Source: a virus
DNA length: 64,000 nt
IMG/VR virus record: IMGVR_UViG_3300008117_000025
Location: 1-64,000 of that record
Reading direction: 5' to 3' (one strand)
Position 1 is the first letter of the stretch, and each line of letters opens with the position of its first letter. The translations under genes and the position numbers were made by a program. A model generated the notes under the pieces. It made no database searches. It had not been told where the DNA came from and saw nothing but the letters and a program-made list of their open reading frames with translations. Positions 3,028 to 60,663 of this stretch are shown piece after piece.

Positions 3028-3322
3028 TTATATAATCTCCTTCGCCTTGCCCATCAACATAATCGCTATACGTTCTATTAGTTAAATTATTTTGAACATC
3101 ATAAACAGGGACATTTTCAACTTCAATACCCATTTCATCAGCCACACTAAACCATTCATCTAAATAATATAAAGTACCTACTTGTTCTTTAAATTCATCT
3201 TCACTGTAGGTATTATTTAGAAAATGATCTGTAATACCTAAACAAGTATCACCATCATAATGCATCGAAAATCGTCCTACTTCTAATGGGTTAAGTTTTA
3301 GCTCATTAAAATTAATTTTCAT
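3020..3322 (-). CDS. Hypothetical acidic protein
   Basis: 100-aa ORF. Confidence 0.75.
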   Translation of the reverse strand: MKINFNELKLNPLEVGRFSMHYDGDTCLGITDHFLNNTYSEDEFKEQVGTLYYLDEWFSVADEMGIEVENVPVYDVQNNLTNRTYSDYVDGQGEGDYIMG

Positions 3323-24317: not shown

Positions 24318-24320
24318 ATA

Positions 24321-25888: not shown

Positions 25889-25889
25889 T

Positions 25890-26723: not shown

Positions 26724-26728
26724 TTTAT

Positions 26729-28069: not shown

Positions 28070-28070
28070 C

Positions 28071-31371: not shown

Positions 31372-31375
31372 AACA

Positions 31376-31771
31376 TTATTTTTTCTTTTCAAAGAAACCT
31401 ATATAATCAAGAGCTTCCATAAAATCTTTTTCCTCAAAATGTTTTACTGTTATCATATCTGCTTTTCCATCCTTAGATTGTACTGCAGCCCACTTCCATT
31501 CATCTTTATTTTTGCCGTCAGCAAATATCATTGATTTATCTTCTAGAATTACAGTACTTGGATACCAATGTAACCCATTTTCATCTTTAAATTTAAGATC
31601 TTTATAAAGTTGGGGCATTACTGATTCTGTTACTTCTAATTTATCTTCTGTTAGAGTTGAATTAGATGTGAATCCACACCCAAAACAACTCCAAATAGTT
31701 AATACATCATTAAATACTTCATGACAAGCATTACCTCCACATCTAGGACAATCTATAAGTTGTTCTTTCAT
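31376..31771 (-). CDS. Zn-ribbon hypothetical protein
   Basis: CPRCGG and CFGCG motifs. Confidence 0.75.
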   Translation of the reverse strand: MKEQLIDCPRCGGNACHEVFNDVLTIWSCFGCGFTSNSTLTEDKLEVTESVMPQLYKDLKFKDENGLHWYPSTVILEDKSMIFADGKNKDEWKWAAVQSKDGKADMITVKHFEEKDFMEALDYIGFFEKKK

Positions 31772-33069: not shown

Positions 33070-33070
33070 A

Positions 33071-44157: not shown

Positions 44158-44163
44158 AACCCT

Positions 44164-44188
44164 TAAATATACTAAATTACTTTGACAA
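44164..44188 (-). promoter_or_regulatory. Promoter TTGTCA-N11-TATATTTA upstream of polB
   Basis: Variant of the repeated motif. Confidence 0.6.
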
Positions 44189-44198
44189 AGCCAAAATA

Positions 44199-44567
44199 TT
44201 AAACTTCATCTACTACATTAAAGGATATACCTGAGTTAGCAAATATATTTCTAGACAATTCAAAGATTGTAGTACCGGAGGAAGGACAAGCATCATTTCC
44301 AGATGCCCAATAAAATCCATATTGTGTTGATGTATTATTAGGATCTACTATTCTAACACGAATATTATTTACACTAGTACCTTGAGAAGCTTCTAAAGTA
44401 CAAGTAAAGTTATTAATTAAACTACCTATTAAATTAAATGTACTACCATTATCTACAGATACATAGAATTGTGGATCTATGCCTGGAGGATTTGTTGAGT
44501 CTAGTCGGCCATATAGGCTCACAGTATAGGTTACAGCAGCAGGTTGTATCCATATTTTAAAAGGCAT
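44199..44567 (-). CDS. Hypothetical beta-rich structural protein
   Basis: 122-aa S/T/N-rich ORF at the end of the fibre locus. Confidence 0.7.
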   Translation of the reverse strand: MPFKIWIQPAAVTYTVSLYGRLDSTNPPGIDPQFYVSVDNGSTFNLIGSLINNFTCTLEASQGTSVNNIRVRIVDPNNTSTQYGFYWASGNDACPSSGTTIFELSRNIFANSGISFNVVDEV

Positions 44568-44578
44568 AAAGATATAAT

Positions 44579-45160
44579 TTAAGTATAATCAGGTAAAATT
44601 ACAAAATATAGATATTGTCCTTTATTAGAATCATAAGTATAGTTGTAATTAAAATTTAAATTTAATGGAGTTGATAAAGATTCTGTTATTGTTGTGGCAG
44701 ATCCTGAGCCACTTCCATTATTGCTCCAGGGTTTTCCATAAAAAACATACATTCTCGATACACCGTAATTATTACTCCCAGATATATTAATAGACCATGT
44801 TGTATTTGAAGTACCAGCATCTATAATCAACATTGTTGATGGAATAATAGAAGTATCATAAGTAAAATGGGATTGTAAAGTACCAGTTACTGAAGAGGAA
44901 ATATAGAGTGTACGGTCATACCCATACCAGGCGGACATTGATAGATTCTGTTTACTCATAGTAACAGGATTGCCGGAAAGAGACCATCTAGAACCAGAGG
45001 AAAGATAATTTATAGGTGTATAAACACCAGAATTAGGGTAATAGGTACTAAATTGACTTCCAGCAGCCCATTCACTAAAGGCATAATTAGATAATGAACT
45101 TTGAGACATCTCTGTCCTTACATCATTAAATGATATTTGTCCGCTATTTGGTAATGCCAT
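44579..45160 (-). CDS. Fibre-associated structural protein
   Basis: MALPNSGQISFNDVRTEM N-terminus, typical of genes following S74 fibres. Confidence 0.7.
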   Translation of the reverse strand: MALPNSGQISFNDVRTEMSQSSLSNYAFSEWAAGSQFSTYYPNSGVYTPINYLSSGSRWSLSGNPVTMSKQNLSMSAWYGYDRTLYISSSVTGTLQSHFTYDTSIIPSTMLIIDAGTSNTTWSINISGSNNYGVSRMYVFYGKPWSNNGSGSGSATTITESLSTPLNLNFNYNYTYDSNKGQYLYFVILPDYT

Positions 45161-48100
45161 TTACCTTCAATTTTAATTCATTAATTTGTGTTTGTTGTTC
45201 CTTAATTGCTTCAACTAACAAACCTACCATTTTAGAATAATCTAACGCTAAATATCCATCTTCTCTTTCTATTACTATCTCAGGTAATACTTCTTGTACT
45301 TCCTGAGCTATCAATCCTATGCTTGGAGTTGATTTGGTTACTTCACCTGCATTATCATTCCACTTCCATTTAACACCATTTAGTTTTAATAGTTTATCTA
45401 AGGCGTTTATAATAGGAGTGACATCATCTTTTAAGCGTTTATCTGAGGAGGAGAAGGCTGTTATGTCACCGGTTGCTGTAATAGCTCCTGTTACTGCTAG
45501 TGTAGACCCATTAAATGTTAAGTTAGTTTCAGCAACAGCAGCATTTGAACTTCCATCAGAAGTTAATACTCTATTATCACTAGCATTTGATATTGTAGTA
45601 AATCCAGTGCCGCTTGAACCGCTTGAACCGCTTGAACCAGGTGAACCAGGAGAACCCGTGTTACCACTAGTGCCGCTTGATCCACTTGAACCAGGTGAAC
45701 CAGGAGAACCCGTGTTACCGCTAGTACCGCTTGAGCCACTTGATCCACTTGAACCAGGTGAACCAGGAGAACCCGTGTTACCGCTAGTACCGCTTGAGCC
45801 ACTTGATCCTCTTGTACCGCTAGTACCACTTGAACCACTAGAACCTGTTTGTCCACTTGTTCCACTAGAACCAGCTGAACCTGCAGAGCCACTAGTACCA
45901 CTTGAACCGCTTGATCCAGCAGTACCGCTTGAGCCTGGTGAGCCAGGAGAACCTGTATTACCACTAGTACCGCTTGAGCCTGGTGAGCCAGGAGCGCCAT
46001 TAGCACCGCTAGTACCACTTGAGCCACTTAAGCCACTAGTACCGCTTGAGCCAGGAGCACCATTAGCACCGCTTGTACCACTTGATCCAGGAGCACCATT
46101 AGCACCGCTTGTACCACTTGAACCACTTGTACCACTAGTACCGCTTGATCCGCTTGAACCGCTAGTACCGCTTGAGCCACTTAAACCACTAGTACCACTT
46201 GAGCCGTTTTGACCACTTGTACCGCTTGAACCGCTTGCACCATTTTGACCACTTGTACCGCTTGAACCATTAACTCCACTAGTACCACTTGAGCCAGCTG
46301 AACCACTAGTACCACTTGAGCCACTTGATCCGCTTGTGCCACTTGAGCCGTTTTGACCTGAAGTACCGCTTGAACCGTTTTGACCTGAAGTACCACTTGA
46401 GCCATTTTGGCCGCTAGTACCGCTAGAGCCAGATGAGCCAGCTGAGCCTGAGGTTCCACTCGATCCGCTAGTACCGCTAGAGCCATTAGCTCCACTAGTA
46501 CCACTAGAACCAGAAGTTCCTGAACTTCCACTTGTTCCTGATGTTCCAGAACTTCCACTTGTTCCTGATGTTCCAGAACTACCAGAGGTGCCACTACTTC
46601 CGTTTTGGCCTGAAGTGCCACTTGAGCCATTCTGACCTGAAGTGCCGCTTGAACCTGATGTTCCAGATGAACCGGGTTGACCAGGAACACCTCCTACATT
46701 TATTTGCCAATCAGTATAAGGTCCACCAGATCCAAAAGTTGTTGTAACATTTATAATTAATTGATTAGTACCTGAAGTATAACTTGTAACAGTTCCTTCC
46801 ATTCTAGTAGCATAATCTGCTGCTCTTGCTGCAATTACAGTTTGGCCATTTGTGTATGCTAAACCAGCTGTAGTTACAGTGAATGTTTTACTTCCAGTTC
46901 CTATTGATTGAGATGTAGTAGAAGTTGTAGCGTATTTGTCTCCGTTCTGACCAGAGGTACCAGCTGAACCTGATGAACCACTAGTTCCTGATGAACCACT
47001 AGTTCCTGATGAACCTGAAGAACCTGAGGTGCCGCTTGAACCGCTTGATCCGCTTGTGCCGCTTGAGCCGTTTTGACCGCTAGTGCCGCTTGAGCCATTT
47101 TGACCTGAAGTACCGCTTGAGCCACTTAAGCCACTAGTACCGCTTGAGCCAGCTGAGCCACTAGTACCGCTTGAGCCAGCTGAGCCACTAGTACCGCTTG
47201 AGCCACTAGAACCACTAGAACCACTAGTACCACTTGAGCCATTTTGGCCTGATGTGCCGCTAGAGCCATTTTGACCTGATGTGCCGCTTGAACCATTGGC
47301 TCCACTAGTACCACTTGAGCCAGCTGAACCGCTAGTACCGCTTGAGCCATTTTGGCCTGATGTGCCGCTAGAGCCATTTTGACCTGATGTACCACTTGAG
47401 CCGTTAGCCCCTGATGTACCGCTTGAACCGCTAGAGCCATTAGCTCCACTAGTACCGCTTGAACCATTTTGACCAGAAGTACCACTAGAGCCTCTTGTGC
47501 CACTTGAACCGCTTGAGCCGCTTGATCCGCTTGTGCCGCTTGAACCGTTCTGGCCTGATGTACCACTTGATCCATTTTGACCACTAGTACCGCTAGAACC
47601 GTTTTGGCCTGATGTGCCACTTGATCCACTCGTACCGCTTGAACCACTTGAGCCGGCTGAGCCGTTGGTACCACTTGAACCACTTGAGCCACTTGTTCCG
47701 GATGAACCATTTTGACCTGAAGTACCGCTTGAGCCATTAGCTCCTGAGGTACCTGATGAGCCGTTTTGGCCGCTTGTGCCGCTTGAGCCGTTTTGGCCGC
47801 TAGTACCGCTTGAACCACTTGTTCCACTAGTACCGCTTGAACCACTTGTTCCACTAGTACCGCTTGAGCCACTTAAGCCACTAGTACCGCTTGAACCACT
47901 AGAACCACTTGAGCCAGATGATCCATTTACTCCACTAGTACCAGATGAACCACTTAAGCCACTAGTACCGCTTGAACCACTTGAGCCGGCTGAACCGCTA
48001 GTACCACTTGAGCCACTTGATCCCCTAGTTCCTGAGGAACCACTTGAGCCAGAAGTGCCACTTGATCCACTTGAGCCACTGCTACCACTTGTACCTGATG

Positions 48101-51100
48101 TACCAAATGATAAACCTGAGGTGCCTGAAGAACCTGTAGAACCAGCTGTACCTGATGAACCAGCTGTACCAGATGATCCTGGGGCTCCTTGGCCTACTAA
48201 TACATTTCCTAATACTCCGTACACGCGTAGGCTATAGACTGCCCAAGTACCAGCAGTAATAGAAGATACTGCTATTGTAACGTTACCACCTGAAGTTAAT
48301 GCTTCAGAATATTTTGCAGGTGCTCTGTATATTGCAGTATCACCATTACCAGAAGCCAAGTGTTCTAACGTAATTGTTTCTTTAACAGATCCACTATATG
48401 ATAATGTAAATACTATTGTTACGTCTTGAGCCGAGGTTGCTGTTAATCCTATCTCAGCTTCAGCTATAATATTGGAATAATTGTTAGAAGGTACAGTGTA
48501 TGTTTTGATATTAGCATTTGTGCCTGTGCCTGTATTAGTTGTTTCATCAGCATATAATAATACAGTTGAACCTGTTAAGTTAACTGTTGTTGCTCCTACA
48601 ATATATGAAGCAGACACTGCATATGATGCTGTGTTTGCAAATGATGCTGTGCCAGATAAAGATCCTGTAAATCCTTGAGTTGAAGTGGTTGAACCACTAA
48701 CAACTAAACTACCTGTTATAGTTGCAGAACCAGTATATGGGAATGAAGCACCTGCATTTAATGCATAAGATGATGTAGCAGCATATGAAGATGTACCTAA
48801 TAGGCTACCTGTAAAGCTATTAGCAATTATAGAACCTGTTATATTAAAGGTGCCACTTACAAAGCTCATACTAACAGAAGCGGTTGCTGCATTTGTGCTA
48901 CCATCTGACAATAATATTCTTCCAATAGCTGGGGTGTTGATTGTTTCAAATCCTACACCGCTTGTGCCACTTGTACCACTTGATCCTCTTGTACCACTTG
49001 AACCTGAAGATCCAGCAGATCCAGATGAGCCGGAGGTACCGCTTGAACCATTAGCACCGCTTGTTCCAGATGATCCAGATGTACCGCTTGATCCGCTAGT
49101 ACCAGTAGAACCACTTGTACCTGTAGAGCCGCTTGTTCCACTTGATCCACTTAAACCGCTTGTACCACTAGAGCCAGTTTGACCACTAGTACCGGATGAA
49201 CCGGTTTGACCACTAGTACCACTTGAACCGCTTGTACCAGATAAACCACTTGTACCTGTAGAGCCGCTTGTTCCACTTGATCCACTTAAACCGCTTGTAC
49301 CACTAGAGCCAGTTTGACCACTAGTACCACTTGAACCGCTTGTACCGCTTGAGCCACTTGAGCCACTAGTACCGCTTGAACCTCTTGTTCCACTAGTACC
49401 ACTAGAACCACTAGTACCACTTGAGCCACTTAATCCACTAGTACCACTAGAACCGCTTATGCCGCTAGAACCACTTGAACCACTTGTTCCGCTTGATCCA
49501 CTAGTACCGCTTGATCCACTTGAACCACCTGTTCCGCTTGATCCGCTTGAGCCACTAGTACCGCTTGATCCGCTAGTACCGCTTGAGCCACTTGAACCAC
49601 TCGTTCCAGATAACCCACTTGTACCTGCTGAACCACTTGATCCGCTAGTGCCGCTTGAGCCACTTGAGCCACTTGTTCCGGATGAGCCAGATGAGCCTGA
49701 AGTGCCAGATGAACCTGAACTACCATTAGCTCCTGAAGTACCAGAGCTACCTGAGCTACCGTCACCACCAGAAGCGCCTGCAAGGTTTACTTCCCAGCTA
49801 GTATATGTTCCTGATCCTATAACTAAATTAGGAGTTCCGTATGTTAATAATCCATTAGATGGATTGTAAGATTCAACAGGAACTTCTTGATAATTAGTAA
49901 GATTATATGCAAGAATTGCTGTTTGAGCAATTGAATATGCTAAATTAATTCCAACAGTTAAACTTCCACTTAGTCCTAATGTTACAGAACTTGTAGATGA
50001 TGTTAAGTATCTATCTCCTGATAAGCCAGCTGTGCCTGAGGAACCAGATGAGCCAGAGCTACCGCTAGTTCCTGAACTACCTGAAGTACCATTAGTACCA
50101 CTTGAGCCGGAGCTACCACTAGTTCCTGAGCTTCCACTTGAGCCTGAGGTGCCGCTTGAGCCATTTTGGCCTGAAGTACCGCTTGAGCCACTTGATCCAG
50201 AAGTACCTGCTGAACCAGATGTACCTGCTGAGCCCGAAGAACCAGTTGAGCCTGATGTACCACTTGAACCACTTGTACCACTTGACCCAGATGTACCGCT
50301 TGAACCGCTTGAACCTGAGGTACCGGTTGAACCAGAAGTACCGGATGAGCCCGAAGAACCAGTTGAGCCTGATGTACCACTTGTACCTGATTCTCCTGAA
50401 GTGCCTGAGGAGCCACTAGAACCTGTTGTACCACTTGAACCTGAAGAGCCTGAAGTGCCTGTTGAACCAGATGTACCTGCTGAGCCTGAAGAGCCAGTTG
50501 TACCAGATGAACCGCTTGTGCCTGATTCTCCTGAAGTACCTGTTGATCCGCTAGTACCACTAGAGCCTGAAGTGCCGCTTGAACCTGTAGTACCACTTGA
50601 GCCGCTAGAGCCACTTAAGCCTGATGTACCACTTGAACCACTTGTACCACTGGTACCGTTTGTACCGCTTGAGCCACTTGTACCTGATTCTCCACTTGTA
50701 CCTGATTCACCACTAGTGCCAGAAGAACCTGCAGTACCTGAAGTGCCTTGTACTAATAATTCCCAGTTAGGATTAGATGTAGGAACAGCACTTCCTGCTG
50801 GTATATCTATAGTTGCTATATATGAAGATTCATTGTAGTAGGTAAGATCATTTATAATATAGTTAGTATAATCATTCCATTCTCCTTTCCATGCAAGTCC
50901 AGTACCTGCTGCACCCGGTATACCTGTTAAGCGAATTGACCAGTTACAACACTCACCTGTTCCTTCAAAACTATATGGTTTAAAATTAAGATTTCCCGTT
51001 GTTGGGTTATAAGATATAACTTCACCTGTTATTACATTACAATTATCATTACAGATTAATTGAATAAAATCACCAGCACCAAATGAAAGATCTGTACTAG

Positions 51101-51179
51101 TAGTTATTGTTAAATCACAATAATTACTAGTTTCACAAGATCCAGAAGAAACACAACAATCATCTATAATTCGGGACAT
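45144..51179 (-). CDS. Giant Gly-Ser/Thr repeat tail fibre with C-terminal peptidase S74 chaperone (2011 aa)
   Basis: SDKRLK...IGLIAQEV...DYSKMVGLLVEAIKEQ; G-S/T-S/T tracts; three copies of a ~85-aa beta module; WKGEW...NW motif. Confidence 0.85.
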   Translation of the reverse strand: MSRIIDDCCVSSGSCETSNYCDLTITTSTDLSFGAGDFIQLICNDNCNVITGEVISYNPTTGNLNFKPYSFEGTGECCNWSIRLTGIPGAAGTGLAWKGEWNDYTNYIINDLTYYNESSYIATIDIPAGSAVPTSNPNWELLVQGTSGTAGSSGTSGESGTSGESGTSGSSGTNGTSGTSGSSGTSGLSGSSGSSGTTGSSGTSGSSGTSGSTGTSGESGTSGSSGTTGSSGSAGTSGSTGTSGSSGSSGTTGSSGSSGTSGESGTSGTSGSTGSSGSSGTSGSTGTSGSSGSSGTSGSSGTSGSSGTSGSTGSSGSAGTSGSAGTSGSSGSSGTSGQNGSSGTSGSSGSSGTSGSSGSSGTNGTSGSSGTSGSSGSSGSSGTAGLSGDRYLTSSTSSVTLGLSGSLTVGINLAYSIAQTAILAYNLTNYQEVPVESYNPSNGLLTYGTPNLVIGSGTYTSWEVNLAGASGGDGSSGSSGTSGANGSSGSSGTSGSSGSSGTSGSSGSSGTSGSSGSAGTSGLSGTSGSSGSSGTSGSSGTSGSSGSSGTGGSSGSSGTSGSSGTSGSSGSSGISGSSGTSGLSGSSGTSGSSGTSGTRGSSGTSGSSGSSGTSGSSGTSGQTGSSGTSGLSGSSGTSGSTGTSGLSGTSGSSGTSGQTGSSGTSGQTGSSGTSGLSGSSGTSGSTGTSGSTGTSGSSGTSGSSGTSGANGSSGTSGSSGSAGSSGSSGTRGSSGTSGTSGVGFETINTPAIGRILLSDGSTNAATASVSMSFVSGTFNITGSIIANSFTGSLLGTSSYAATSSYALNAGASFPYTGSATITGSLVVSGSTTSTQGFTGSLSGTASFANTASYAVSASYIVGATTVNLTGSTVLLYADETTNTGTGTNANIKTYTVPSNNYSNIIAEAEIGLTATSAQDVTIVFTLSYSGSVKETITLEHLASGNGDTAIYRAPAKYSEALTSGGNVTIAVSSITAGTWAVYSLRVYGVLGNVLVGQGAPGSSGTAGSSGTAGSTGSSGTSGLSFGTSGTSGSSGSSGSSGTSGSSGSSGTRGSSGSSGTSGSAGSSGSSGTSGLSGSSGTSGVNGSSGSSGSSGSSGTSGLSGSSGTSGTSGSSGTSGTSGSSGTSGQNGSSGTSGQNGSSGTSGANGSSGTSGQNGSSGTSGSSGSSGTNGSAGSSGSSGTSGSSGTSGQNGSSGTSGQNGSSGTSGQNGSSGTSGSSGSSGSSGTRGSSGTSGQNGSSGTSGANGSSGSSGTSGANGSSGTSGQNGSSGTSGQNGSSGTSGSAGSSGTSGANGSSGTSGQNGSSGTSGQNGSSGTSGSSGSSGSSGTSGSAGSSGTSGSAGSSGTSGLSGSSGTSGQNGSSGTSGQNGSSGTSGSSGSSGTSGSSGSSGTSGSSGTSGSSGSAGTSGQNGDKYATTSTTSQSIGTGSKTFTVTTAGLAYTNGQTVIAARAADYATRMEGTVTSYTSGTNQLIINVTTTFGSGGPYTDWQINVGGVPGQPGSSGTSGSSGTSGQNGSSGTSGQNGSSGTSGSSGTSGTSGSSGTSGTSGSSGTSGSSGTSGANGSSGTSGSSGTSGSAGSSGSSGTSGQNGSSGTSGQNGSSGTSGQNGSSGTSGSSGSSGTSGSAGSSGTSGVNGSSGTSGQNGASGSSGTSGQNGSSGTSGLSGSSGTSGSSGSSGTSGTSGSSGTSGANGAPGSSGTSGANGAPGSSGTSGLSGSSGTSGANGAPGSPGSSGTSGNTGSPGSPGSSGTAGSSGSSGTSGSAGSAGSSGTSGQTGSSGSSGTSGTRGSSGSSGTSGNTGSPGSPGSSGSSGSSGTSGNTGSPGSPGSSGSSGTSGNTGSPGSPGSSGSSGSSGTGFTTISNASDNRVLTSDGSSNAAVAETNLTFNGSTLAVTGAITATGDITAFSSSDKRLKDDVTPIINALDKLLKLNGVKWKWNDNAGEVTKSTPSIGLIAQEVQEVLPEIVIEREDGYLALDYSKMVGLLVEAIKEQQTQINELKLKVNGITK
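45590..50750. repeat. GSS/GTS tripeptide-coding tandem repeat tracts (fibre 1)
   Basis: 9-nt periodic degenerate repeat interrupted by globular modules. Confidence 0.9.
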
Positions 51180-51206
51180 CTATATTGATTTTTATTTTAC
51201 ATTACT

Positions 51207-51410
51207 TTAAAAAGGTGGAACATCACATAATGTTTTTGATATTATTTCACCACATCCTCCTGAAACTGTATAACAATAGGTACCATCTGAATAGAAATTA
51301 TCTGGTACAGGTGAATTAAAGGAAGAGTCGGTGTATATAAAACTACCAACATTAAGTATTATAGATCTACTATAAAAACATCCATAAATTGGAACAAAAA
51401 TAGGGCCCAT
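51207..51410 (-). CDS. Small Cys-containing structural protein
   Basis: VGSFIYTDSS...YSDG module, also present in 51448..52650. Confidence 0.6.
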   Translation of the reverse strand: MGPIFVPIYGCFYSRSIILNVGSFIYTDSSFNSPVPDNFYSDGTYCYTVSGGCGEIISKTLCDVPPF

Positions 51411-51447
51411 ATTTATATTTTACAATAATTATTTAAAGTTTATATAT

Positions 51448-52650
51448 TTAACATCCACAAGGATTATTCCAAGTTCCACATTGTGAGTTGGGGTAATCAT
51501 TAAAATAATCACTATTTACTATATCTGCGGGTGGTTGAATAGGAGGAAGTATATTTTGTGTTGTTATAGAACCATATCTAACACAATCTGAAAGTGTATA
51601 TAGATATAATTGCCCCTCAGGTTCAAAAGTTGAATTTTCTGTTGTTATTAAACCATACTGTGTAGTTCCACTACAATCAACATATTTAAAAGATCCTGTT
51701 TCAGCTGCATATAATAATATATTTTGGAAACATCCATTAAATGCTTTATATACTATACAAGCTCCTGCACAATCTGGTGTAACTAAAGGACCAACTGCTG
51801 AGTCTCTTCTTGCTAAACAGTGTGCAACTGGAGTACAAGAGCCTAGATCAGTAATTACACCACTATCATTTACAACTAAACAATTAGTACCATCATAATA
51901 AGTACCAGTATCTGCTATTGTTGTTAAAGAAGAGTCTGTGTATAGGAAGCATCCAACTTCTAGATCGCAACAATCACTGTATATAGTAGGTGATAAAGCT
52001 TGAGTTGAATATGTTACTATAACAAGTCCATTTCCACCAACACCACCATTTCTTGTTGAAGAACCTAAATCAGTATTTGCTCCTCCTGATCCACCACCCC
52101 CAAAGCTAGCTCCTGGATTTCCATTATTTCCTGGGGTTACTCCATTTGCTCCTAATCCTCCATAAAAATTTGTTGCTGATCCTCCAACATTATTTACTGC
52201 ATTGCTTCCACTATTAGTAGAACCGGCACCTCCTCCTCCTCCACCAGACCCTGCATCTACTCCATTTCCTCCATTTCCACCTTTAAATATTATATCACCA
52301 ACACACCCTGCTGTACTACCAGAAGCTCCAGTAGCATATGCTGGCGTTGCTCCAGTAGCATTATTGCCATTTATCCCTCCTTTAGCATAAACTACATTAA
52401 TATTATCAAACCAAGAATCTCTATTACCCGCTCCACCTTGACCAACAGTAACTGTATATCCTTGTCCTGGGTTAACAGGATAATTCATTTTTTTAGCATA
52501 TGCACCTCCAGATCCACCACCACCACGACCTCCAAGGCGAGTAGAAAGTCCACCTGATCCCCCAGCTCCCCATGCTTCTATAGTTACATGATTAACATTG
52601 GCTGGTACTGTAAAGGTTCCATTTGTATAAAAAAATTCTTTTTGTCTCAT
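51448..52650 (-). CDS. Glycine-rich-domain fibre/adhesin-like protein with Cys-rich C-terminus
   Basis: TFTVPANV..VTIEAWGAGGSGG...GGGGSGGAY, VGQGG, GGNGLVIVTY. Confidence 0.8.
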   Translation of the reverse strand: MRQKEFFYTNGTFTVPANVNHVTIEAWGAGGSGGLSTRLGGRGGGGSGGAYAKKMNYPVNPGQGYTVTVGQGGAGNRDSWFDNINVVYAKGGINGNNATGATPAYATGASGSTAGCVGDIIFKGGNGGNGVDAGSGGGGGGAGSTNSGSNAVNNVGGSATNFYGGLGANGVTPGNNGNPGASFGGGGSGGANTDLGSSTRNGGVGGNGLVIVTYSTQALSPTIYSDCCDLEVGCFLYTDSSLTTIADTGTYYDGTNCLVVNDSGVITDLGSCTPVAHCLARRDSAVGPLVTPDCAGACIVYKAFNGCFQNILLYAAETGSFKYVDCSGTTQYGLITTENSTFEPEGQLYLYTLSDCVRYGSITTQNILPPIQPPADIVNSDYFNDYPNSQCGTWNNPCGC

Positions 52651-52690
52651 ATAAAAACTAATTTATTAATATTTTTAACAACTAATACAA

Positions 52691-55600
52691 TTAATTACAT
52701 CCTTCAACACATCCTCTTGCATAGTTATCTTCTGCTTCACAGCAATCACCTGGTGTTTCTGATGTTGGAGTATATCCTACACAGAATGAACAATATATTG
52801 GGCATTCTTCAAGTGGGAGAGTAATACAGGTAGTACTGGTTCCTGAGAGTTTAACTGAAGTACCACTTGTACCTGAACTACCTGATGTACCAGATGAACC
52901 GGAGGTTCCTGAACTACCACTAGATCCACTTGTACCTGAACTACCTGATGAACCTGAAGTACCTGTAGAGCCTGATGTACCTGTTGAACCAGATGTTCCT
53001 GAACTACCACTTGATCCACTTGATCCTGTTGTACCTGATGAACCTGAAGTGCCAGTTGATCCGCTAGTACCTGATGAACCGCTAGTACCTGATGAACCCG
53101 ATGATCCACCAGAACCACTTGTACCTGCTGAGCCTGCAGATCCACTTGTACCTGTTGAGCCTGAGCTTCCTCCAGTACCTGAACTTCCTGAGCTACCATT
53201 TGCCCCACTTGTTCCTGAACTTCCTGATGTTCCGCTTGAGCCACTAGTACCAGAAGTACCACTTGAGCCTGAATTGCCAGAAGTACCTGATGATCCTCTT
53301 GTGCCGGAGGTTCCACTAGAACCTGAAGTTCCACTAGAGCCTGAAGTGCCGGATGTACCAGAACTACCATCAATTCCTGATGTACCAGATGAACCAGAGG
53401 TGCCATTAGAACCCGAAATGCCGGATGTTCCTGAACTACCATCAATCCCTGATGTTCCTGATGAGCCTGAACTACCTGATGTACCTGAACTACCTGATGT
53501 ACCAGATGAGCCAGATGTTCCAGAGCTACCATTTGTGCCTGAAATACCAGATGTACCTGAACTACCAGATGTACCAGATGAGCCAGATACGCCGGAAGTA
53601 CCAGCGTCTCCTGTTATACCACTAGTACCTGAGGTACCATTTGATGTGCCTGATGTACCTGTTGTGCCTGATGTACCAAATGAATATCCTGAAGACCCAG
53701 CAGTTCCTGAAGTACCAAATGATATACCGGATGTACCTGCTGAACCTGAAGAACCTGTTGTACCTGCTGTACCATTGCCTGAGGTTCCACTTGTACCAGT
53801 TTGACCACTTGTACCGCTTGATCCACGAGTACCACTAGTACCACTTGTACCACTAGTACCATTTGTTCCTGAAATACCTGAAGTACCGCTTGAGCCTGTT
53901 GTACCTGAAGTACCAGTTGTGCCTGAAGTGCCATTAGTACCATCTGCACCTGAGGTTCCAGAAGATCCATTAGTACCATTTATTCCTGAAGTACCATTAG
54001 TACCTGAAATACCAGAAGTACCATTTGAACCACTAACACCTGAAGAGCCAGAAGTACCAAAAGTACCATCAGAGCCAGAAGTGCCAGAAGAACCACTTGA
54101 ACCGTCAACTCCGGAAGAACCAGAACTACCTGATGTACCATGGGTTCCACTTGATCCTGAACTACCTGATGAGCCTGAAGAACCAGCTGACCCAGCTGAT
54201 CCAGCTGTTCCTGATGAGCCTGCAGAACCTGCAGAGCCAGCAGTACCTGCAGAGCCGGATGAACCACTTGATCCAGAGCTTCCTGAAGAACCACTAGAGC
54301 CAGCTTCACCACTTGTTCCTGAACTTCCATCTTCTCCGTCTACTCCTGATAATCCTGAAGAACCAGAACTACCACTAGTACCTGTCTCTCCACTAGTACC
54401 GGAACTTCCTTCAGTTCCTGATGTACCTGAAGTGCCATTTATTCCTGATGAACCTGAAGTGCCATTAGATGTACCTGAGGTACCTGTTGTGCCTGAAGTA
54501 CCGTATGTGTATCCAGAAGAACCAGCTGTGCCGGAGGTACCAAATGATAGACCTGAAGTGCCTGCTGAACCTGATGATCCTGTTTCTCCGCTTGTACCTG
54601 AAGTACCTGTTTCTCCGCTTGTACCTGAAGTACCTGTTTCTCCGCTTGTACCTGAAGTACCAGATGTGCCTGAGGTACCTGTTGTACCACTTGTACCTGC
54701 TGTACCACTTGTACCTGTTTCTCCACTAGTACCAGAGGAACCAGATGTACCAAAAGTACCTGATAAACCTGAAGTACCGCTTGATCCTGTTGTACCTGAA
54801 GTACCAGTTGTACCACTTGTACCTTGTGTTCCACTAGTGCCGCTAGTACCTGTTGTGCCTGATGTACCTGTTGTACCGCTTGTTCCAGCAGTTCCATTAC
54901 CTGAAGTGCCTGATGTACCAGCAGTTCCGTTACCTGAGGTACCACTTGTACCTGCAGTTCCATTACCTGAAGTACCTGAGGTACCTGATGAGCCTGAAGT
55001 ACCTGTTGTACCGCTTGTTCCAGCAGTTCCATTACCTGAAGTGCCTGATGTACCTGTTGTGCCTGATGTGCCTGTTGTGCCTGATGTACCTGTTGTGCCG
55101 CTTGAACCTGAAGTGCCTGATGTACCTGTTGTGCCTGATGTACCTGTTGTGCCTGAAGTGCCAGCAGTTCCGTTACCTGAGGTACCACTTGTACCTGCAG
55201 TTCCATTACCTGAAGTGCCAGAAGTACCTGTTGTACCTGAAGTACCGTTTGATGTACCTGATGTACCTGTTGTACCTGATGTACCGTATGTGTATCCTGA
55301 AGATCCTGCTGTACCCGACGTACCGAATGATATACCTGATGTACCTGCTGAACCTGAAGAACCTGTTGTGCCTGATGTACCACTGCCTGAAGTACCACTT
55401 GTACCTGTTTCTCCACTAGTACCACTTGATCCTCTAGTACCACTAGTACCGCTTGTACCTGCAGTTCCATTACCTGAAGTGCCTGATGAGCCTGATGAGC
55501 CTGTAGTACCAGAAGTACCTGAAGTACCTGTTGTACCGCTTGTGCCTGATGAGCCTGTAGTACCAGAAGTACCTGAAGTGCCTGTTGTACCTGTTGTGCC

Positions 55601-56815
55601 GCTTGTTCCTTGTGTTCCACTGATACCGCTTGTACCTGTTGTGCCTGAAGTACCAGTTGTACCACTTGTGCCTGATGTACCTGTTGTACCAGAAGTACCA
55701 GTTGTTCCTGAAGTACCTGTTGTGCCGCTTGTTCCCGTAGTACCGCTTGTTCCCGTAGTACCGCTAGTACCTGTTGTACCGCTTGTTCCCGTAGTACCGC
55801 TAGTGCCTGATGTGCCTGTTGTGCCTGAAGTGCCTGTTGTACCGCTCGTGCCTGAGGTACCTGTTGTACCGCTAGTACCTGTTGTACCTGATGTGCCGCT
55901 AGTACCTGTTATACCTGATGTACCTGTTGTGCCGCTTGTACCTGAAGTGCCTGATGTGCCACTTATACCGCTTGTTCCACGAGCACCACTAGTACCTGAT
56001 GTTCCTGTTGTACCTGATGTACCTGTTGTGCCACTTGTGCCGGTTGTACCTGATGTGCCTGTTGTGCCGCTTGAACCTGAGGTGCCGGATGTACCTGTTG
56101 TACCAGAAGTGCCTCTTGATCCACTTGAACCTGAACTTCCAGCAGATCCAGATATACCTGATGTGCCAGAAGAACCATCTGAACCTGAAGTACCGCTTGA
56201 GCCTGTTGTACCTGAAGTACCTGAGGTGCCGCTTGTACCAGTAGTACCAGAAGTGCCTGTTGTGCCTGAAGTACCTGTTGTGCCTGCTGTACCACTTGTA
56301 CCTGCTGTACCTGAAGTACCAGCAGCAGAGCGGGCATATTTTGTTAAAATATCAAGAATATTATATATATCAGCATCAGTGAGCCAACCACCTAATGATC
56401 CTAGTCTTGTTATATCTCCAGTAGGATCTATAAATATTCCTTTAACTTCAGCTGGGTAGTTTTCAACTCCTGTATATTCAGTAGCATTTGCTAGTATTTG
56501 AACATTAGTATCTTCTAAAACACAACAAACTTCAGTTTCAGTTTGAAGAGATATAGAAGCAACTCTATATATTTTCCCATATGCTAGATTCCCTCCTTCA
56601 GCATATAGCATTCCAACTTTCACATCACGTCCATCTATTTGACCATCTGTACTACCAGCTGCTTGGTCAGAATATATAGTAAAACAGCATTGAAAAAGAT
56701 ATGATGCTCCATCAAATATACTCCCAGGATCCGAAAACGTTGGGGTTGTTGGGGAACCAGAACCTGGTTTAAGTAGTGCTCTAATTACTAATGAAGAGTT
56801 AGCTGCAGTGGGCAT
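52691..56815 (-). CDS. Giant Gly-Thr/Ser repeat protein (1374 aa)
   Basis: ~165-aa N-domain, ~1150 aa of G-T/S-T/S, 8-Cys C-terminal tail. Confidence 0.85.
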   Translation of the reverse strand: MPTAANSSLVIRALLKPGSGSPTTPTFSDPGSIFDGASYLFQCCFTIYSDQAAGSTDGQIDGRDVKVGMLYAEGGNLAYGKIYRVASISLQTETEVCCVLEDTNVQILANATEYTGVENYPAEVKGIFIDPTGDITRLGSLGGWLTDADIYNILDILTKYARSAAGTSGTAGTSGTAGTTGTSGTTGTSGTTGTSGTSGTSGTTGSSGTSGSDGSSGTSGISGSAGSSGSSGSRGTSGTTGTSGTSGSSGTTGTSGTTGTSGTTGTSGTTGTSGTSGARGTSGISGTSGTSGTSGTTGTSGITGTSGTSGTTGTSGTTGTSGTSGTTGTSGTTGTSGTSGTTGTSGTTGTSGTTGTSGTTGTSGTTGTSGTTGTSGTTGTSGTSGTTGTSGTTGTSGISGTQGTSGTTGTTGTSGTSGTTGSSGTSGTTGTSGTSGTTGSSGSSGTSGNGTAGTSGTSGTRGSSGTSGETGTSGTSGSGTSGTTGSSGSAGTSGISFGTSGTAGSSGYTYGTSGTTGTSGTSNGTSGTTGTSGTSGNGTAGTSGTSGNGTAGTSGTTGTSGTTGTSGTSGSSGTTGTSGTTGTSGTTGTSGTSGNGTAGTSGTTGTSGSSGTSGTSGNGTAGTSGTSGNGTAGTSGTSGNGTAGTSGTTGTSGTTGTSGTSGTQGTSGTTGTSGTTGSSGTSGLSGTFGTSGSSGTSGETGTSGTAGTSGTTGTSGTSGTSGTSGETGTSGTSGETGTSGTSGETGSSGSAGTSGLSFGTSGTAGSSGYTYGTSGTTGTSGTSNGTSGSSGINGTSGTSGTEGSSGTSGETGTSGSSGSSGLSGVDGEDGSSGTSGEAGSSGSSGSSGSSGSSGSAGTAGSAGSAGSSGTAGSAGSAGSSGSSGSSGSSGTHGTSGSSGSSGVDGSSGSSGTSGSDGTFGTSGSSGVSGSNGTSGISGTNGTSGINGTNGSSGTSGADGTNGTSGTTGTSGTTGSSGTSGISGTNGTSGTSGTSGTRGSSGTSGQTGTSGTSGNGTAGTTGSSGSAGTSGISFGTSGTAGSSGYSFGTSGTTGTSGTSNGTSGTSGITGDAGTSGVSGSSGTSGSSGTSGISGTNGSSGTSGSSGTSGSSGTSGSSGSSGTSGIDGSSGTSGISGSNGTSGSSGTSGIDGSSGTSGTSGSSGTSGSSGTSGTRGSSGTSGNSGSSGTSGTSGSSGTSGSSGTSGANGSSGSSGTGGSSGSTGTSGSAGSAGTSGSGGSSGSSGTSGSSGTSGSTGTSGSSGTTGSSGSSGSSGTSGSTGTSGSTGTSGSSGSSGTSGSSGSSGTSGSSGTSGSSGTSGTSVKLSGTSTTCITLPLEECPIYCSFCVGYTPTSETPGDCCEAEDNYARGCVEGCN
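52850..56330. repeat. GTT/GTS/GSS tripeptide-coding repeat (fibre 2)
   Basis: 9-nt periodicity; includes 3 exact 27-nt copies at 54579-54659. Confidence 0.9.
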
Positions 56816-56823
56816 ACTTTATT

Positions 56824-59800
56824 TTATATTAGGAAGATTATATAGGCTGTTGTTGTATTTGAAGTAACACTAGTTGCTGAACCAATTCCAGTGATAGTAA
56901 ACGTTGGGTAAGTTCCAGATGAATGATCTTGATTAACAGAAGCTAGTGCATTATTTGTAGTATACCCTGATGACATTGCTGTTCTTAGATTTACCTGGTT
57001 TGGAGATCCTGCTGTACCTATTGAAACAACAGAGCAATAATATATAGGAACTGAACGATTTGATATAGGTCTAGTAGCTGAAATTGATGTTGATGAAGCT
57101 ACACTAAATGACCATCCATTAGCTGTTAAGTCTTCTCCATTAGGACCAACAGCGCTAGCTATTGAATTTACAGCTCCTGCAACTATATTTAAAGTAACAA
57201 CATATTTTCCACCTGCAGATGATGTACCAGAAGTACCAGAAGAACCTGTTCCTCCAGTTTGGCCACTAGTTCCTGAAGTACCATTTGAAGTACCTGAGGT
57301 GCCTGTTGTACCGGAAGTACCATATGATAAACCTGATGAGCCTGCTGTACCTGAAGTACCGAATGATAGGCCTGAAGTACCAGATGAGCCAGTTTCTCCC
57401 GATGTTCCACTAGAGCCTGAGGTACCTGTTGATCCACTTGTTCCACTTGAACCACTTGAGCCATTAACACCACTTGTACCGCTTGAACCGGTTGTACCGC
57501 TTGATCCGCTTGTGCCTGTAGATCCACTAGTACCACTTGAACCGCTTGTTCCGTTTGAACCATTTTGACCAGATGTACCACTTGAACCAGTTGTACCGCT
57601 TGAGCCGCTTGTACCAGTAGAGCCACTTGTTCCACTTGAACCGCTAGTACCATTTGAACCACTTTGGCCAGATGTACCACTAGAGCCAGCTGTACCACTT
57701 GAGCCACTTGTGCCTGTAGAGCCTGATGTTCCGCTTGATCCACTTGATCCGCTTGTACCTGTAGAACCTGATGTGCCGCTTGAACCGCTTGATCCGCTTG
57801 TGCCACTTGATCCGTCTATACCTGAAGTACCACTTGAGCCTGAAGTACCACTAGAGCCTCTTGTGCCGCTTGAACCGCTTGAGCCACTAGTACCGCTTGA
57901 TCCACTAGTACCGCTTGATCCGCTTGTACCACTTGATCCACTTGATCCGCTTGATCCAGAAGTACCACTTGAACCACTTGATCCAGAAGTACCACTTGAA
58001 CCACTTGAACCATCTACTCCGCTAGTACCAGATGAGCCAGATGTACCAGTAGAGCCACTAGTGCCACTAGTTCCAGATGAACCTGAACTACCAGTTTCGC
58101 CACTAGTTCCTGAAGAACCCGAACTACCAGTTTCACCACTTGTACCAGATGAACCTGAAGTGCCAGTTGATCCACTAGTTCCTGAAGAACCCGAACTACC
58201 AGTTTCGCCGCTAGTTCCAGATGAACCATTTGTTCCATTTTCGCCACTTGTACCACTTGAACCACTTGATCCAGTTTCACCACTTGTACCTGATGAACCT
58301 CTTGTACCACTAGTTCCACTTGTACCTGATGAACCTCTTGTACCACTAGTTCCTGAAGAACCGGATGTACCTGAACTACCATCTACTCCACTTGTTCCTG
58401 AAGAGCCGTTTGTTCCTGAAACTCCAGAGGTGCCACTTGAACCTGAAGTACCGCTTGAGCCTGTTGTACCGCTAGTACCTGTTGTACCTGATGTACCGTT
58501 TGATGTACCTGAAGTACCTGTTGTACCTGAAGTACCGTATGAAAAGCCTGATGAACCTGCTGTACCTGATGTACCGAATGATATACCTGAGGTACCTGCG
58601 GAGCCGGATGAGCCGGTTGTTCCTGCTGTACCATCATTACCTGAAGTACCGCTTGAGCCAGTTACTCCACTTGTTCCTGATGAACCTCTTGTACCTGATG
58701 TACCTGAGGTGCCTGATGAGCCTGAAGTGCCGGATGAGCCTGAAGTACCAGATGAGCCGTTTGTTCCAGTTATACCACTTGTTCCAGATGAACCCCGTGT
58801 TCCACTTGAACCGGATGTACCAGATGAGCCTCTTGTACCGCTAGTTCCTGATGTACCAGATGAGCCTCTTGTACCGCTAGTTCCTGATGAACCGGATGTG
58901 CCACTTGAACCAGATGAACCACTAGTACCGGATGATCCTCTAGTACCGGATGAACCGCTTGTACCGGATGACCCTCTAGTACCGGATGTACCACTTGTAC
59001 CGCTTGAACCTGAAGTGCCAGCGCTACCACTAGTACCGGATGAACCTCTTGTACCACTAGTTCCTGATGAACCGGATGTGCCACTTGTTCCTGAAGTGCC
59101 AGATGTACCAACACTTCCGCTTGTTCCAGAAGAACCACTAGTTCCTGAAGAACCGGATGTGCCTGCACTTCCACTTGTACCTGAGCTGCCATTTGTACCT
59201 GATTCTCCAGAAGTACCAGATGATCCATTTGTCCCGGATATACCTGATGTGCCTGATGAGCCGTTGCTTCCAGATACACCTGATGTGCCTGAACTACCAC
59301 TTGTTCCTGAAGATCCGCTAGAACCTGATGTACCACTTGACCCTGAAGAGCCTGATGTACCTGATGAGCCACTAGAACCAGATGATCCTCTAGTGCCAGA
59401 TGAACCGGAAGAACCAGCTGAACCACTAGTACCAGAAGTACCAGCTGAGCCGGAAGTACCAGCGGTTCCAGATGAACCACTTGTGCCAGCAGACCCACTT
59501 GTTCCACTTGAACCTGATGTTCCTGAGGTGCCACCAGTGCCTGATGAACCTGAGGTGCCGCTTGAACCAGAAGAACCATTAGCACCAGAGGTGCCACTAG
59601 AGCCAGCAGTACCACTAGTACCAGAAGTATTAGTGGTAGTGGTTCTATAATATAATTGCTTAGACGTCGTATCGAATACAACGTAATTTGTTAATGCGTT
59701 TTCAGTTAGGGTTGCTTTTACACTTCCTGTAATGTCTACAGAACCTGTCATTTTAAATGACCCACTAACACTTAATAAGTTGCCAATTATAGCTGTGCTT

Positions 59801-60078
59801 CCAGATAGATAACTTGCACTAACTGCTGTTATTGCATTATTAGCCCAGCTTGAAGTACCATATAAAGAGCCAGTTAAATTATTAAGAACAGCACGACCAT
59901 CAACTGTAAAAAATCCAAGTACAGAGGTAGATCCAGTAATATTAATATTACTACCAGACATGTTAGTAAGAAGGTAGACAAAATTACCATCACCTTCAGG
60001 CCATGTTAACTCTGAGCCTTTTATGGCTATAGTGTTTCCCGCGTTGGCCGCAGAACTTATACGCAGTATTAATCCCAT
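56824..60078 (-). CDS. Giant Gly-Ser/Thr repeat fibre protein (1084 aa)
   Basis: N-terminal LR...KGSELT..E.DGNF anchor-like motif, GSLYGTSSWA repeats, ~800 aa GSS/GTS, beta-rich C-domain. Confidence 0.85.
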   Translation of the reverse strand: MGLILRISSAANAGNTIAIKGSELTWPEGDGNFVYLLTNMSGSNINITGSTSVLGFFTVDGRAVLNNLTGSLYGTSSWANNAITAVSASYLSGSTAIIGNLLSVSGSFKMTGSVDITGSVKATLTENALTNYVVFDTTSKQLYYRTTTTNTSGTSGTAGSSGTSGANGSSGSSGTSGSSGTGGTSGTSGSSGTSGSAGTSGSSGTAGTSGSAGTSGTSGSAGSSGSSGTRGSSGSSGSSGTSGSSGSSGTSGSSGSSGTSGSSGTSGVSGSNGSSGTSGISGTNGSSGTSGESGTNGSSGTSGSAGTSGSSGTSGSSGTSGSVGTSGTSGTSGTSGSSGTSGTRGSSGTSGSAGTSGSSGTSGTSGTRGSSGTSGSSGTRGSSGTSGSSGSSGTSGSSGTSGTRGSSGTSGTSGTRGSSGTSGSSGTRGSSGTSGITGTNGSSGTSGSSGTSGSSGTSGTSGTRGSSGTSGVTGSSGTSGNDGTAGTTGSSGSAGTSGISFGTSGTAGSSGFSYGTSGTTGTSGTSNGTSGTTGTSGTTGSSGTSGSSGTSGVSGTNGSSGTSGVDGSSGTSGSSGTSGTRGSSGTSGTSGTRGSSGTSGETGSSGSSGTSGENGTNGSSGTSGETGSSGSSGTSGSTGTSGSSGTSGETGSSGSSGTSGETGSSGSSGTSGTSGSTGTSGSSGTSGVDGSSGSSGTSGSSGSSGTSGSSGSSGSSGTSGSSGTSGSSGTSGSSGSSGTRGSSGTSGSSGTSGIDGSSGTSGSSGSSGTSGSTGTSGSSGSSGTSGSTGTSGSSGTAGSSGTSGQSGSNGTSGSSGTSGSTGTSGSSGTTGSSGTSGQNGSNGTSGSSGTSGSTGTSGSSGTTGSSGTSGVNGSSGSSGTSGSTGTSGSSGTSGETGSSGTSGLSFGTSGTAGSSGLSYGTSGTTGTSGTSNGTSGTSGQTGGTGSSGTSGTSSAGGKYVVTLNIVAGAVNSIASAVGPNGEDLTANGWSFSVASSTSISATRPISNRSVPIYYCSVVSIGTAGSPNQVNLRTAMSSGYTTNNALASVNQDHSSGTYPTFTITGIGSATSVTSNTTTAYIIFLI
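57210..59630. repeat. GSS/GTS tripeptide-coding repeat (fibre 3)
   Basis: 9-nt periodicity. Confidence 0.9.
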
Positions 60079-60129
60079 GAAAATATATATTTACTACATA
60101 TAAATATACATCTCTATGGGCAGCTTTAT

Positions 60130-60663
60130 TTATAGTGAACTTCTTTGTTTGTCATTTTGCCACTGACCATTATACTTTTCAGCAGTATTACATTCATGAA
60201 AATAGATTTGTGCTACTCTAGCATCTTTTTCAATGAATATTGTTTCATAAACATAAAGTAATGTACCCATATTTTGGGTTTCAAAACCAGGATCAAATAC
60301 AGGACTATTAATAATTGCTCCATTACGGTAAAGAGATGAGCGTTGTTTAATAAATGCTACTCTATTATCTGGGATTTTACATCCTTCATGGAATGTAATA
60401 TCATATACACCTTCATAAAGTAGCCATCCATTTACTCCATCTAGATTAATAGATTCGAGGGGGGTATAGGTAGTTAGTTCGGTTTTATCTTTAAGTACCT
60501 TACCAATTTTACTGTTATTAGATAAATTATAGGCACCACCTATTTTATTACCTATTTTCTGTACTGCTTTAAGACTAAGATCATAACCAACTTGTGCTGG
60601 TTTACCTTGTGTTGTTTCTAGAAGGAGTAAACCTTCATCTACTATTTGTTTTACGTTTAACAT
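60130..60663 (-). CDS. dCTP deaminase / dUTPase family protein
   Basis: GYDL, RSSL.R.G, FDPGF, RVAQIYF motifs. Confidence 0.8.
   Translation of the reverse strand: MLNVKQIVDEGLLLLETTQGKPAQVGYDLSLKAVQKIGNKIGGAYNLSNNSKIGKVLKDKTELTTYTPLESINLDGVNGWLLYEGVYDITFHEGCKIPDNRVAFIKQRSSLYRNGAIINSPVFDPGFETQNMGTLLYVYETIFIEKDARVAQIYFHECNTAEKYNGQWQNDKQRSSL

Follow-up and report, generated by a model that had tools for sequence, protein, structure and literature searches.

Giant Ser/Thr-rich collagen-like fibre genes of a T4-like phage and a candidate link to TibC-type glycosylation

The IMG/VR virus record IMGVR_UViG_3300008117_000025 is a complete genome of 182,846 bp with terminal repeats. Its first 64,000 nucleotides are referred to here as the window, and all coordinates are those of the window unless marked "genome". 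Three giant minus-strand open reading frames (ORFs) of the window, designated fibres A, B, and C, encode proteins built largely of Gly-X-Y triplets filled with serine and threonine. Imino acids, hydroxyproline, and Lys-Asp/Glu clamps are treated as general stabilisers of collagen (PMC8968730; PMC11923368), and the clamps are said to be common to the collagens of all domains of life and viruses (PMC11923368). The helix proposed for A, B, and C lacks all three, that is, every known stabiliser. The question raised by the locus is whether such chains are helical fibres at all, and what could hold them together. We analysed the window, the complete genome, and related phages. The three proteins are probably trimeric collagen-like fibres of the virion (the trimeric state of B and C and the virion location being predicted), and in this large T4-like phage their most likely role is that of accessory tail fibres or of fibres for host recognition. 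Judging from sequence comparison, we lean modestly towards the view that they would also be O-glycosylated by a TibC-like module encoded in the same genome. An earlier note on the window, made from its letters, had described three giant Gly/Ser/Thr fibres. Their ORFs, strand, and sizes stood, but the genome encodes five such proteins: A, B, C, and two Ser/Thr collagen fibres of the structural module, P0004 (genome 108103-109818, 571 amino acids, aa) and the long fibre P0005 (genome 109835-116908, 2357 aa).

Repeat structure and end domains of the fibres

Fibre A (45144..51179, minus strand; 2011 aa) comprises a Cys-rich N-terminal domain, four collagen tracts of 246, 276, 418, and 363 aa spaced by domains of 77, 254, and 81 aa, and a C-terminal S74 chaperone. 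The earlier note had rightly seen long tracts in this protein but counted two. Fibre B (52691..56815, minus strand; 1374 aa) is Thr-rich. It begins with a 165-aa N-terminal domain, an orphan carrying two Cys-Cys pairs, and ends in a 54-aa tail containing 9 Cys; the 1155-residue collagenous region between them is interrupted by 16 short breaks. Fibre C (56824..60078, minus strand; 1084 aa) consists of an N-terminal domain (residues 1-152), an 801-residue collagenous region of Gly-Ser/Thr-Ser type with 6 breaks and two register-break cassettes, and a 131-aa C-terminal domain. The stretches of about 1150 and 800 near-continuous residues reported earlier correspond to the regions of B and C. Each minus-strand ORF runs from ATG to stop and passes through the non-repeat end domains, and plus-strand ORFs are restricted to the repeats, the long ones being mirror artefacts. 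The minus strand was therefore taken as coding, since its ORFs cover end domains (with homologues for the ends of A and C) and plus-strand ORFs cover repeats only. The Pfam Collagen family PF01391 matched A, B, and C with E values of 1e-174, 1e-133, and 1e-103, respectively.

The periodicity is strict, as had been claimed. The longest unbroken runs of Gly-x-x reach 130, 95, and 126 triplets in A, B, and C, respectively, compared with at most 9 triplets in 1000 composition-preserving shuffles of protein C. The merged collagenous regions amount to 1303, 1155, and 801 residues, which at 0.286 nm per residue gives predicted lengths of about 373, 330, and 229 nm; the value of about 330 nm agrees with the earlier estimate for B. 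Ser and Thr together (S+T) make up 0.82-0.87 of the X and Y positions. Position X holds Ser or Thr, 70-85% of triplets have Ser at Y, and GSS and GTS are the two most frequent triplets in each tract set. Thr content is 24% in B, 18% in C, and 14% in A, so the description of the second fibre as Thr-rich was correct. Counted over all five fibres of the genome, the tracts (3765 residues) contain 15 Pro, 1 Lys, and no Lys-Gly-Asp/Glu (KG[DE]) triplet; neither a high Pro/Hyp content nor such triplets, the known helix stabilisers, were found in any of the five. The last tract of A carries all 15 Pro. Fourteen of them occupy position Y, in Gly-Ser-Pro and Gly-Ala-Pro triplets.

At the DNA level, repeat copies are 60-70% identical and the underlying period is 9 nt. 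Ser codons are drawn from both families (TCA 41%, AGT 24%, TCT 16%, AGC 15%). Because the DNA copies have diverged and both codon families are used, the Gly periodicity is held at the protein level and does not reflect recent slippage. Conserved entry and exit motifs border the tracts. Five copies of a register-break cassette (family D5, minus strand; 62-85% DNA identity) were found, three in B (53617-53863, 54442-54688, and 55225-55471) and two in C (57300-57546 and 58476-58722). Each cassette spans about 40 residues and contains one-residue insertions of F, Y/F, and N at 12-residue spacing, which jointly restore the Gly register. It may act as a joint or docking site.

Cys-rich end modules lie beside the tracts at 52691-52855 (the 9-Cys tail of B), 56321-56815, and 50748-51179 (the latter two with the Cys-Cys pairs of the N-terminal domains of B and A), and comparable Cys-Cys-containing junctions border the tracts of Microcystis phage Mel-JY01. 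By forming disulfide or metal knots, these modules may hold the trimer together.

The Peptidase_S74 domain (PF13884; 45273..45446, minus strand; residues 1912-1969 of A) was detected with an E value of 1.5e-17 and 64 bits against a curated cut-off of 22, and among the three fibres in A only. In endosialidase S74 the Ser-Lys dyad at the cleavage site is spaced by five residues. The motif SDKRLK of A also places Ser and Lys five residues apart (the Ser being read from the sequence), and its D, R, and K are invariant in an alignment with the fibre ends of relatives. Since S74 is present in A only, it backs trimerisation for A only; the earlier argument that S74 implies a trimer holds for A and does not extend to B and C. 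Residues 1866-2006 of A match the fibre tip of Salmonella phage S16 gp37 (6f45_A, E 1.6e-6). Residues 744-812 of A are 74% identical to residues 2208-2276 of P0005, a 69-residue module near the C-terminal end of that protein (E 2e-26), and C shows a weaker motif match to P0005 (50% over 48 aa). These shared parts, together with the PF01391 matches and the S74 domain, bear out the proposal of collagen-like fibre proteins. The fibres also match the PHROG tail-fibre families phrog_5073, 6320, 8745, and 1806.

The remaining end domains are rarer. The N-terminal domain of C recurs at the same locus in relatives (66% identity in L016, 62% in L017, and 46% in L055) and has motifs in common with P0005. 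Its C-terminal domain has 4 matches among 1.84 billion protein representatives and none in GenBank phages or the ESM Atlas. For the N-terminal domain of B, no match was found in GenBank phages, in IMG/VR by pattern, or in a set of 5.8 billion proteins at near length. A sequence search of the PDB with the fibres returned animal collagens and the Gly-Ala-Pro-Gly-Ser-Gln "spindle/axial fibril" 8zxl, by periodicity alone, and no solved Ser/Thr-only collagen-like tract was among the results. An AlphaFold2 monomer of 200 tract residues was unstructured, with a predicted local distance difference test score (pLDDT) of 31 and no self-folding bundle; a monomer model is silent on the trimer.

A TibC-like enzyme and Ser/Thr collagen across phages

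An ORF of 698 aa at genome 89008-91104 (L011:9008-11104) encodes a GT4 domain fused to a TibC-like domain. It aligns with TibC (PDB 4RAP) over 343 residues (TibC residues 37-385) with an E value of 1.8e-59. In TibC, Asp-110 is catalytic and Thr-226, Lys-230, and Trp-305 bind the sugar (PMC4358343); all four are conserved in the phage ORF, as are the four iron-finger cysteines (Cys-339, 342, 358, and 370). The genes 3' of it encode a GT2, an 1109-aa GT4-FkbM-GT2-CmcI enzyme, five 2-oxoglutarate (2OG) oxygenases, a 1732-aa propeller protein, P0004, and P0005. The five tandem 2OG-Fe(II) oxygenase genes (genome 98765-101875; L011:18765-19436 and L009:73-1875) thus sit between the glycosyltransferase genes and those of the structural fibres. 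They might conceivably act as prolyl hydroxylases, since the last tract of A carries Y-position Pro.

IMG/VR contains at least 395 stretches with TibC-like proteins. The 80 best loci, forming 32 clusters at 80% identity, were surveyed, and homologues of the 1109-aa partner enzyme were present in 59 of the 80. Collagen ORFs lay within 10 kb of the TibC-like gene in 12 of the 32 clusters, and 9 of the 12 were of Ser/Thr type, with S+T filling at least 0.75 of X/Y, a Pro content of about 0, lengths of 1200-2600 aa, and a position on the TibC strand 0-6 kb away. When ORFs were counted, 20 of the 27 nearby collagens had S+T of at least 0.74 and almost no Pro, and most of those not of Ser/Thr type still reached 0.61-0.70. 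Three TibC-positive records without collagen within 10 kb carry Ser/Thr collagen ORFs of 3900-4700 aa elsewhere (S+T 0.84-0.89), and fibres like P0005 and P0004 (S+T 0.90 and 0.83) occur on the two contigs that encode a TibC 90% identical to the present one. The control was a set of 80 S74-seeded loci, obtained with a five-sequence S74 profile because an eight-sequence profile was too divergent. From it came 23 collagen ORFs, whose S+T had a median of 0.35 and none of which lay within 10 kb of a TibC; L292, the one richest in Ser/Thr, belongs to a 316-kb record that has a TibC-like gene elsewhere. At the cluster and record level, the table was 16/7 versus 2/13 (odds ratio 15, Fisher p 9e-4). 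At the ORF level, the S+T medians were 0.85 for TibC loci and 0.35 for controls (Mann-Whitney p 2e-4). In the loci surveyed, no autotransporter was seen near the TibC-like genes, and the recurrent neighbour was a Ser/Thr collagen-like ORF.

The giant ORFs of 3900-4700 aa were seen in TibC-positive records G011 and G013 (L303, L304); if helical, they would be near or beyond one micrometre in length.

The same contrast was found within the clade. The complete relatives G001-G004 have no TibC-like gene, and their collagens use other residue sets: Ala/Thr-Gln/Thr in G001 and G002 and Asp/Phe/Ala-Gln/Lys in G003, with no collagen in G004. Collagen tracts within one genome share one residue set, as in the five G003 ORFs (Asp/Phe/Ala at X and Gln/Lys at Y; loci L056 and L057, 81-107 kb of G003) and the five Ser/Thr ORFs here. 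This suggests either genome-wide homogenisation or a genome-specific constraint on composition.

Among GenBank phages, TibC-like genes were found in only four records, one of which is the cultured Microcystis phage Mel-JY01 (PP395634.1). Its TibC-like domain is the C-terminal end of a 1226-aa coding sequence (CDS) annotated "methyltransferase FkbM". At a distance of 1.7 kb upstream there is an unannotated Ser/Thr-only collagen ORF (about 1771 aa) that runs in frame over the ends of the linear record, from 187738-189999 (L309:9738-11999) into 2-3052 (L306:2-3052). Two opposite-strand "hypothetical protein" CDSs (1-651 and 739-2298) overlie its repeats. Our literature search returned no paper that connects collagen-like fibres with a heptosyltransferase or a phage TibC-like enzyme, and no mention of Mel-JY01. 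The tracking of Ser/Thr-only composition with the TibC-type module had been overlooked in the earlier note. Because Ser/Thr collagen fibres travel with a phage copy of TibC, the fibres are probably sugar-coated.

Genomic setting of the fibre block

The genome is T4-like, with genes for PolB, clamp loader, GroEL, hsp20, sheath, and preQ0. Its nearest cultured relative is Mel-JY01, with a PolB identity of only 36%. Fibres A, B, and C, a glycine-rich gene, and two small ORFs form a 16-kb insertion (44158..60129) between polB and dcd. Among 44 related loci fetched (PolB 57-95% identical), 34 show both dcd and polB. The two genes lie within about 50 nt of each other in 16 of these 34, and the rest carry unrelated inserts of about 0.8-9 kb. 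The dcd-polB junction is an insertion hot spot, and the fibre block is an insertion in it, a second point missed earlier. Only two of the related loci, L016 and L017, have other collagen genes upstream of polB. The single 734-aa fibre of L016 combines the N-terminal domain of C (66%), an Ala/Thr-Gln/Thr tract, and the S74 end of A (45%). Since parts of C and A are joined in this one protein, the block in the window resembles a single ancestral accessory-fibre gene that has been expanded.

Between B and A lies a gene for a glycine-rich fibre protein of GGX type (51448..52650, minus strand; 400 aa; Pfam Gly_rich_2). It matches PF21722 (E 1e-14) and phrog_863. No PDB sequence match was found, and the fold search alone was informative. 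In a Foldseek search the AlphaFold2 model (pLDDT 85) was closest to the cyanophage Pam3 fibre 7ypx_A (E 1.6e-8) and the Bxb1 tail tip, and it matched weakly the glycine-rich domains of ALK/LTK, which are rich in polyglycine-II. Because of the modules shared with P0004 and P0005, the S16 gp37-like end of A, and this Pam3-like neighbour, the block can be placed among virion fibre genes, the location in the virion being predicted. An unannotated 67-aa ORF with 4 Cys (51207..51410, minus strand) lies between the glycine-rich gene and A, and a TATAAATA motif ends on the A of its ATG. The same T4 late-promoter consensus occurs on the minus strand at 60127..60134, 49 nt 5' of the ATG of fibre C, and overlaps the dcd stop codon. 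Motifs of this type are not enriched across the window (15 matches versus 13.6 expected), so the copy at fibre C is weak evidence of a promoter.

Two further groups of window genes were considered as partners of the collagen fibres and rejected. The sugar-nucleotide island (19995-31392), which is variable in the clade, encodes two or three GDP-mannose dehydratase/epimerase genes, a DegT aminotransferase, GT10-/GT11-type fucosyltransferase-like genes, a TylF O-methyltransferase, and a GT2. It is not in G003, with its five collagen fibres, and genes 52-72% identical to it are present in the collagen-free G004. The other group, two large phrog_2170 glycosyltransferases (31771-34531), belongs to the core gene set of the clade.

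Competing explanations and comparison with known systems

A triple helix is favoured because the register survives DNA divergence, an S74 chaperone and entry/exit motifs are present, and the break cassette is compensated. In the mechanism we propose, each fibre would be a parallel homotrimer whose Gly-X-Y tracts are wound into a collagen-type triple helix about 230-370 nm long, with small globular domains and short register breaks acting as joints. Folding would be nucleated at the C-terminal ends, by the S74 chaperone in A, which is predicted to cleave itself off, and perhaps by the 9-Cys tail in B and the orphan globular domain in C. In the cytoplasm, about 1,700 exposed Ser/Thr hydroxyls would be O-glycosylated by the phage GT4-TibC-like transferase, and the neighbouring GT2 and GT4-FkbM-GT2-CmcI enzymes would lengthen the glycan and add methyl groups to it. 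With these sugars the fibre would present a glycan surface, and its helix would be both stabilised and hydrated. A TibC-type module would thus give a concrete explanation for the stability of a helix that has neither Pro nor charge pairs.

Several observations weigh against this proposal. Host-guest peptide studies give Ser and Thr only a middling triple-helix propensity. The C-terminal domains of B and C match no recognisable family and contain no recognised trimerisation domain. The distance between genes A, B, and C and the TibC-like gene is 29-46 kb. In G005 a stand-alone TibC-like gene (38% identity) occurs without any collagen, and the collagen of G009, which also has a TibC-like gene, is of Gln/Thr/Asn/Pro type. 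Two Ser/Thr collagen contigs, both short, showed no TibC. The survey counts, which draw on many fragmentary contigs, lack phylogenetic independence. The sugar island of the window does not track collagen, because it is missing in G003 yet present in G004. The substrates of TibC are beta-helical autotransporters, whereas the candidate phage substrate is a Gly-X-Y chain. In TibC, Arg-286 contacts adenine N1, excludes guanine, and sets specificity for ADP-heptose (PMC4358343); the corresponding residue of the phage ORF is Thr, so the sugar-nucleotide donor may differ from ADP-heptose.

Some of these points would be met by a triple helix that is proline-free and carries no sugar, held by terminal trimerisation domains, great length, Ser/Thr-water hydrogen bonds, and a cool habitat, with the TibC-like enzyme modifying other virion proteins or the host surface. 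All the evidence for trimeric fibres counts for it, and so do the distance of the enzyme gene, the collagen-free G005, and the non-conserved Arg-286. Yet it leaves unexplained why Ser/Thr-only composition tracks TibC across phages and why the TibC-free sister phages use other residue sets. Moreover, the peptide (Gly-Pro-Thr)10 is triple-helical only with galactosylated Thr and is a random coil without the sugar (PMC11923368). We regard an unglycosylated helix as unlikely. Rather less likely still is a flexible, disordered, mucin-like Ser/Thr spacer, glycosylated or not, whose Gly periodicity is a relic of 9-nt repeat expansion. The unstructured monomer model, the lack of known helix stabilisers, and the 9-nt DNA period would all suit such a spacer. 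It is difficult to reconcile with Gly at every third position for up to 130 triplets despite 60-70% DNA identity and scrambled codons, with breaks that are few, conserved, and compensated by three +1 insertions restoring the register, with the same strict periodicity in distant phages, or with the S74 chaperone and conserved entry/exit motifs that flank the tracts.

The earlier note had offered polyglycine-II (PGII) bundles like the snow-flea antifreeze protein as its alternative, with flat Thr/Ser faces that could bind ice or polysaccharide. In such an arrangement each chain, or several together, would be packed as flat sheets of PGII helices. The three-residue period and small polar residues recall such bundles, PGII-type folds occur in phage fibre tips, and a neighbouring ORF is of that kind. 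As the structures of the snow-flea protein, ALK, and S16 gp38 illustrate, PGII sheets need Gly at about two-thirds of positions, whereas only one residue in three is buried in the collagen supercoil. In the tracts, both non-Gly positions are Ser/Thr, leaving one Gly per triplet; no turn-forming breaks at 9-15-residue spacing occur over 100 or more triplets; the monomer model shows no compaction; and the GGX-type motif resides in the separate gene at 51448-52650. The PGII alternative was thus not upheld and appears very improbable, and an ice-binding role of the fibres is unlikely. Of these explanations, the glycosylated triple helix is the one we prefer.

Collagen-like phage fibres with S74 are already known, as are Thr-rich bacterial collagens and the glycosylated BclA. 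The known phage fibres (the PHROG "collagen like minor tail" and tail-fibre families, and EPclA of an E. coli O157 prophage; PMC3368898) place Gly-X-Y between non-collagen domains, as here, and form a trimeric fibre with an S74 or another C-terminal trimerisation unit. EPclA and most viral collagens depend on Pro and about 22% charged residues, and KGD accounts for 13% of viral triplets (PMC11923368). The present fibres, by contrast, have essentially no Pro or Lys, their position Y is dominated by Ser, and in tract length they exceed the short phage examples in reviews by a factor of 10-50 (PMC8968730). What is new about the fibres is that they are Ser-dominated, Pro-free, charge-free, and hundreds of nanometres long. 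The T4/S16 long tail fibre (gp34-gp37 with a gp38-like tip) and the Pam3 fibre offer parallels in tandem fibre genes, the S16 gp37-like end of A, and the glycine-rich fibre protein. Unlike the T4/S16 fibre, the shafts here are collagen-like instead of beta-structured, and the cluster lies among replication genes, not in the structural module.

For the glycosylation proposed here, the closest analogues are the TibC-TibA and Aah-AIDA-I pairs, in which a cytoplasmic bacterial autotransporter heptosyltransferase (BAHT; PDB 4RAP; PMC4358343) hyperglycosylates Ser in a long, repetitive fibre of the cell surface that the same genome encodes. The phage enzyme keeps the catalytic Asp, three of the four sugar-binding residues, and the four-Cys iron finger, but it is fused to a GT4 and would work on a virion instead of a bacterial adhesin. 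As cited in PMC8968730 and PMC11923368, Bacillus BclA carries O-linked oligosaccharides on Gly-Pro-Thr repeats, and Riftia cuticle collagen has galactosyl-Thr at Y. By these accounts both lack hydroxyproline and are stabilised by O-glycosylated hydroxy-amino acids at Y, and a similar role is proposed here. The two are described as keeping Pro at X and using Thr, whereas the phage fibres have Ser/Thr at X as well and mainly Ser at Y, and their predicted transferase is of another family. Mycobacteriophage glycosyltransferases decorate their own virion proteins, at the C-termini of capsid and tail-tube subunits (Freeman et al., 2023, as cited in PMC12619734). The enzyme families differ there, and that citing account describes neither a collagen-like acceptor nor a BAHT enzyme.

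The within-clade contrast, the dcd-polB insertion hot spot, the change at Arg-286, and the cultured Mel-JY01 case are new here. The Mel-JY01 GenBank record also illustrates for annotation that Ser/Thr collagen genes are easily called on the wrong strand. Either fibres that lack both imino acids and clamps over more than 1000 residues offer a natural test of some other stabilising principle, or they form no helices at all. The TibC link gives a sharp prediction that is testable in cultured Mel-JY01. We tentatively suggest, with some reserve, that dense Ser/Thr O-glycosylation by a phage BAHT-type module might be a third general collagen stabiliser besides imino acids and salt bridges, and that proline- and charge-free "glyco-collagen" fibres of 0.2-1 micrometre might be the sugar-coated feelers of many aquatic phages. 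If true, these would form an exception to the folding code based on salt bridges that was recently put forward as universal for collagens, those of viruses among them, and this way of holding a collagen helix together would be new for phages. The BAHT substrate range would be widened, and a hydroxyproline-free, enzyme-tunable collagen scaffold would be offered. Virion glycosylation, so far a matter of a few mycobacteriophage capsids, would then also cover a widespread class of fibres in aquatic phages.

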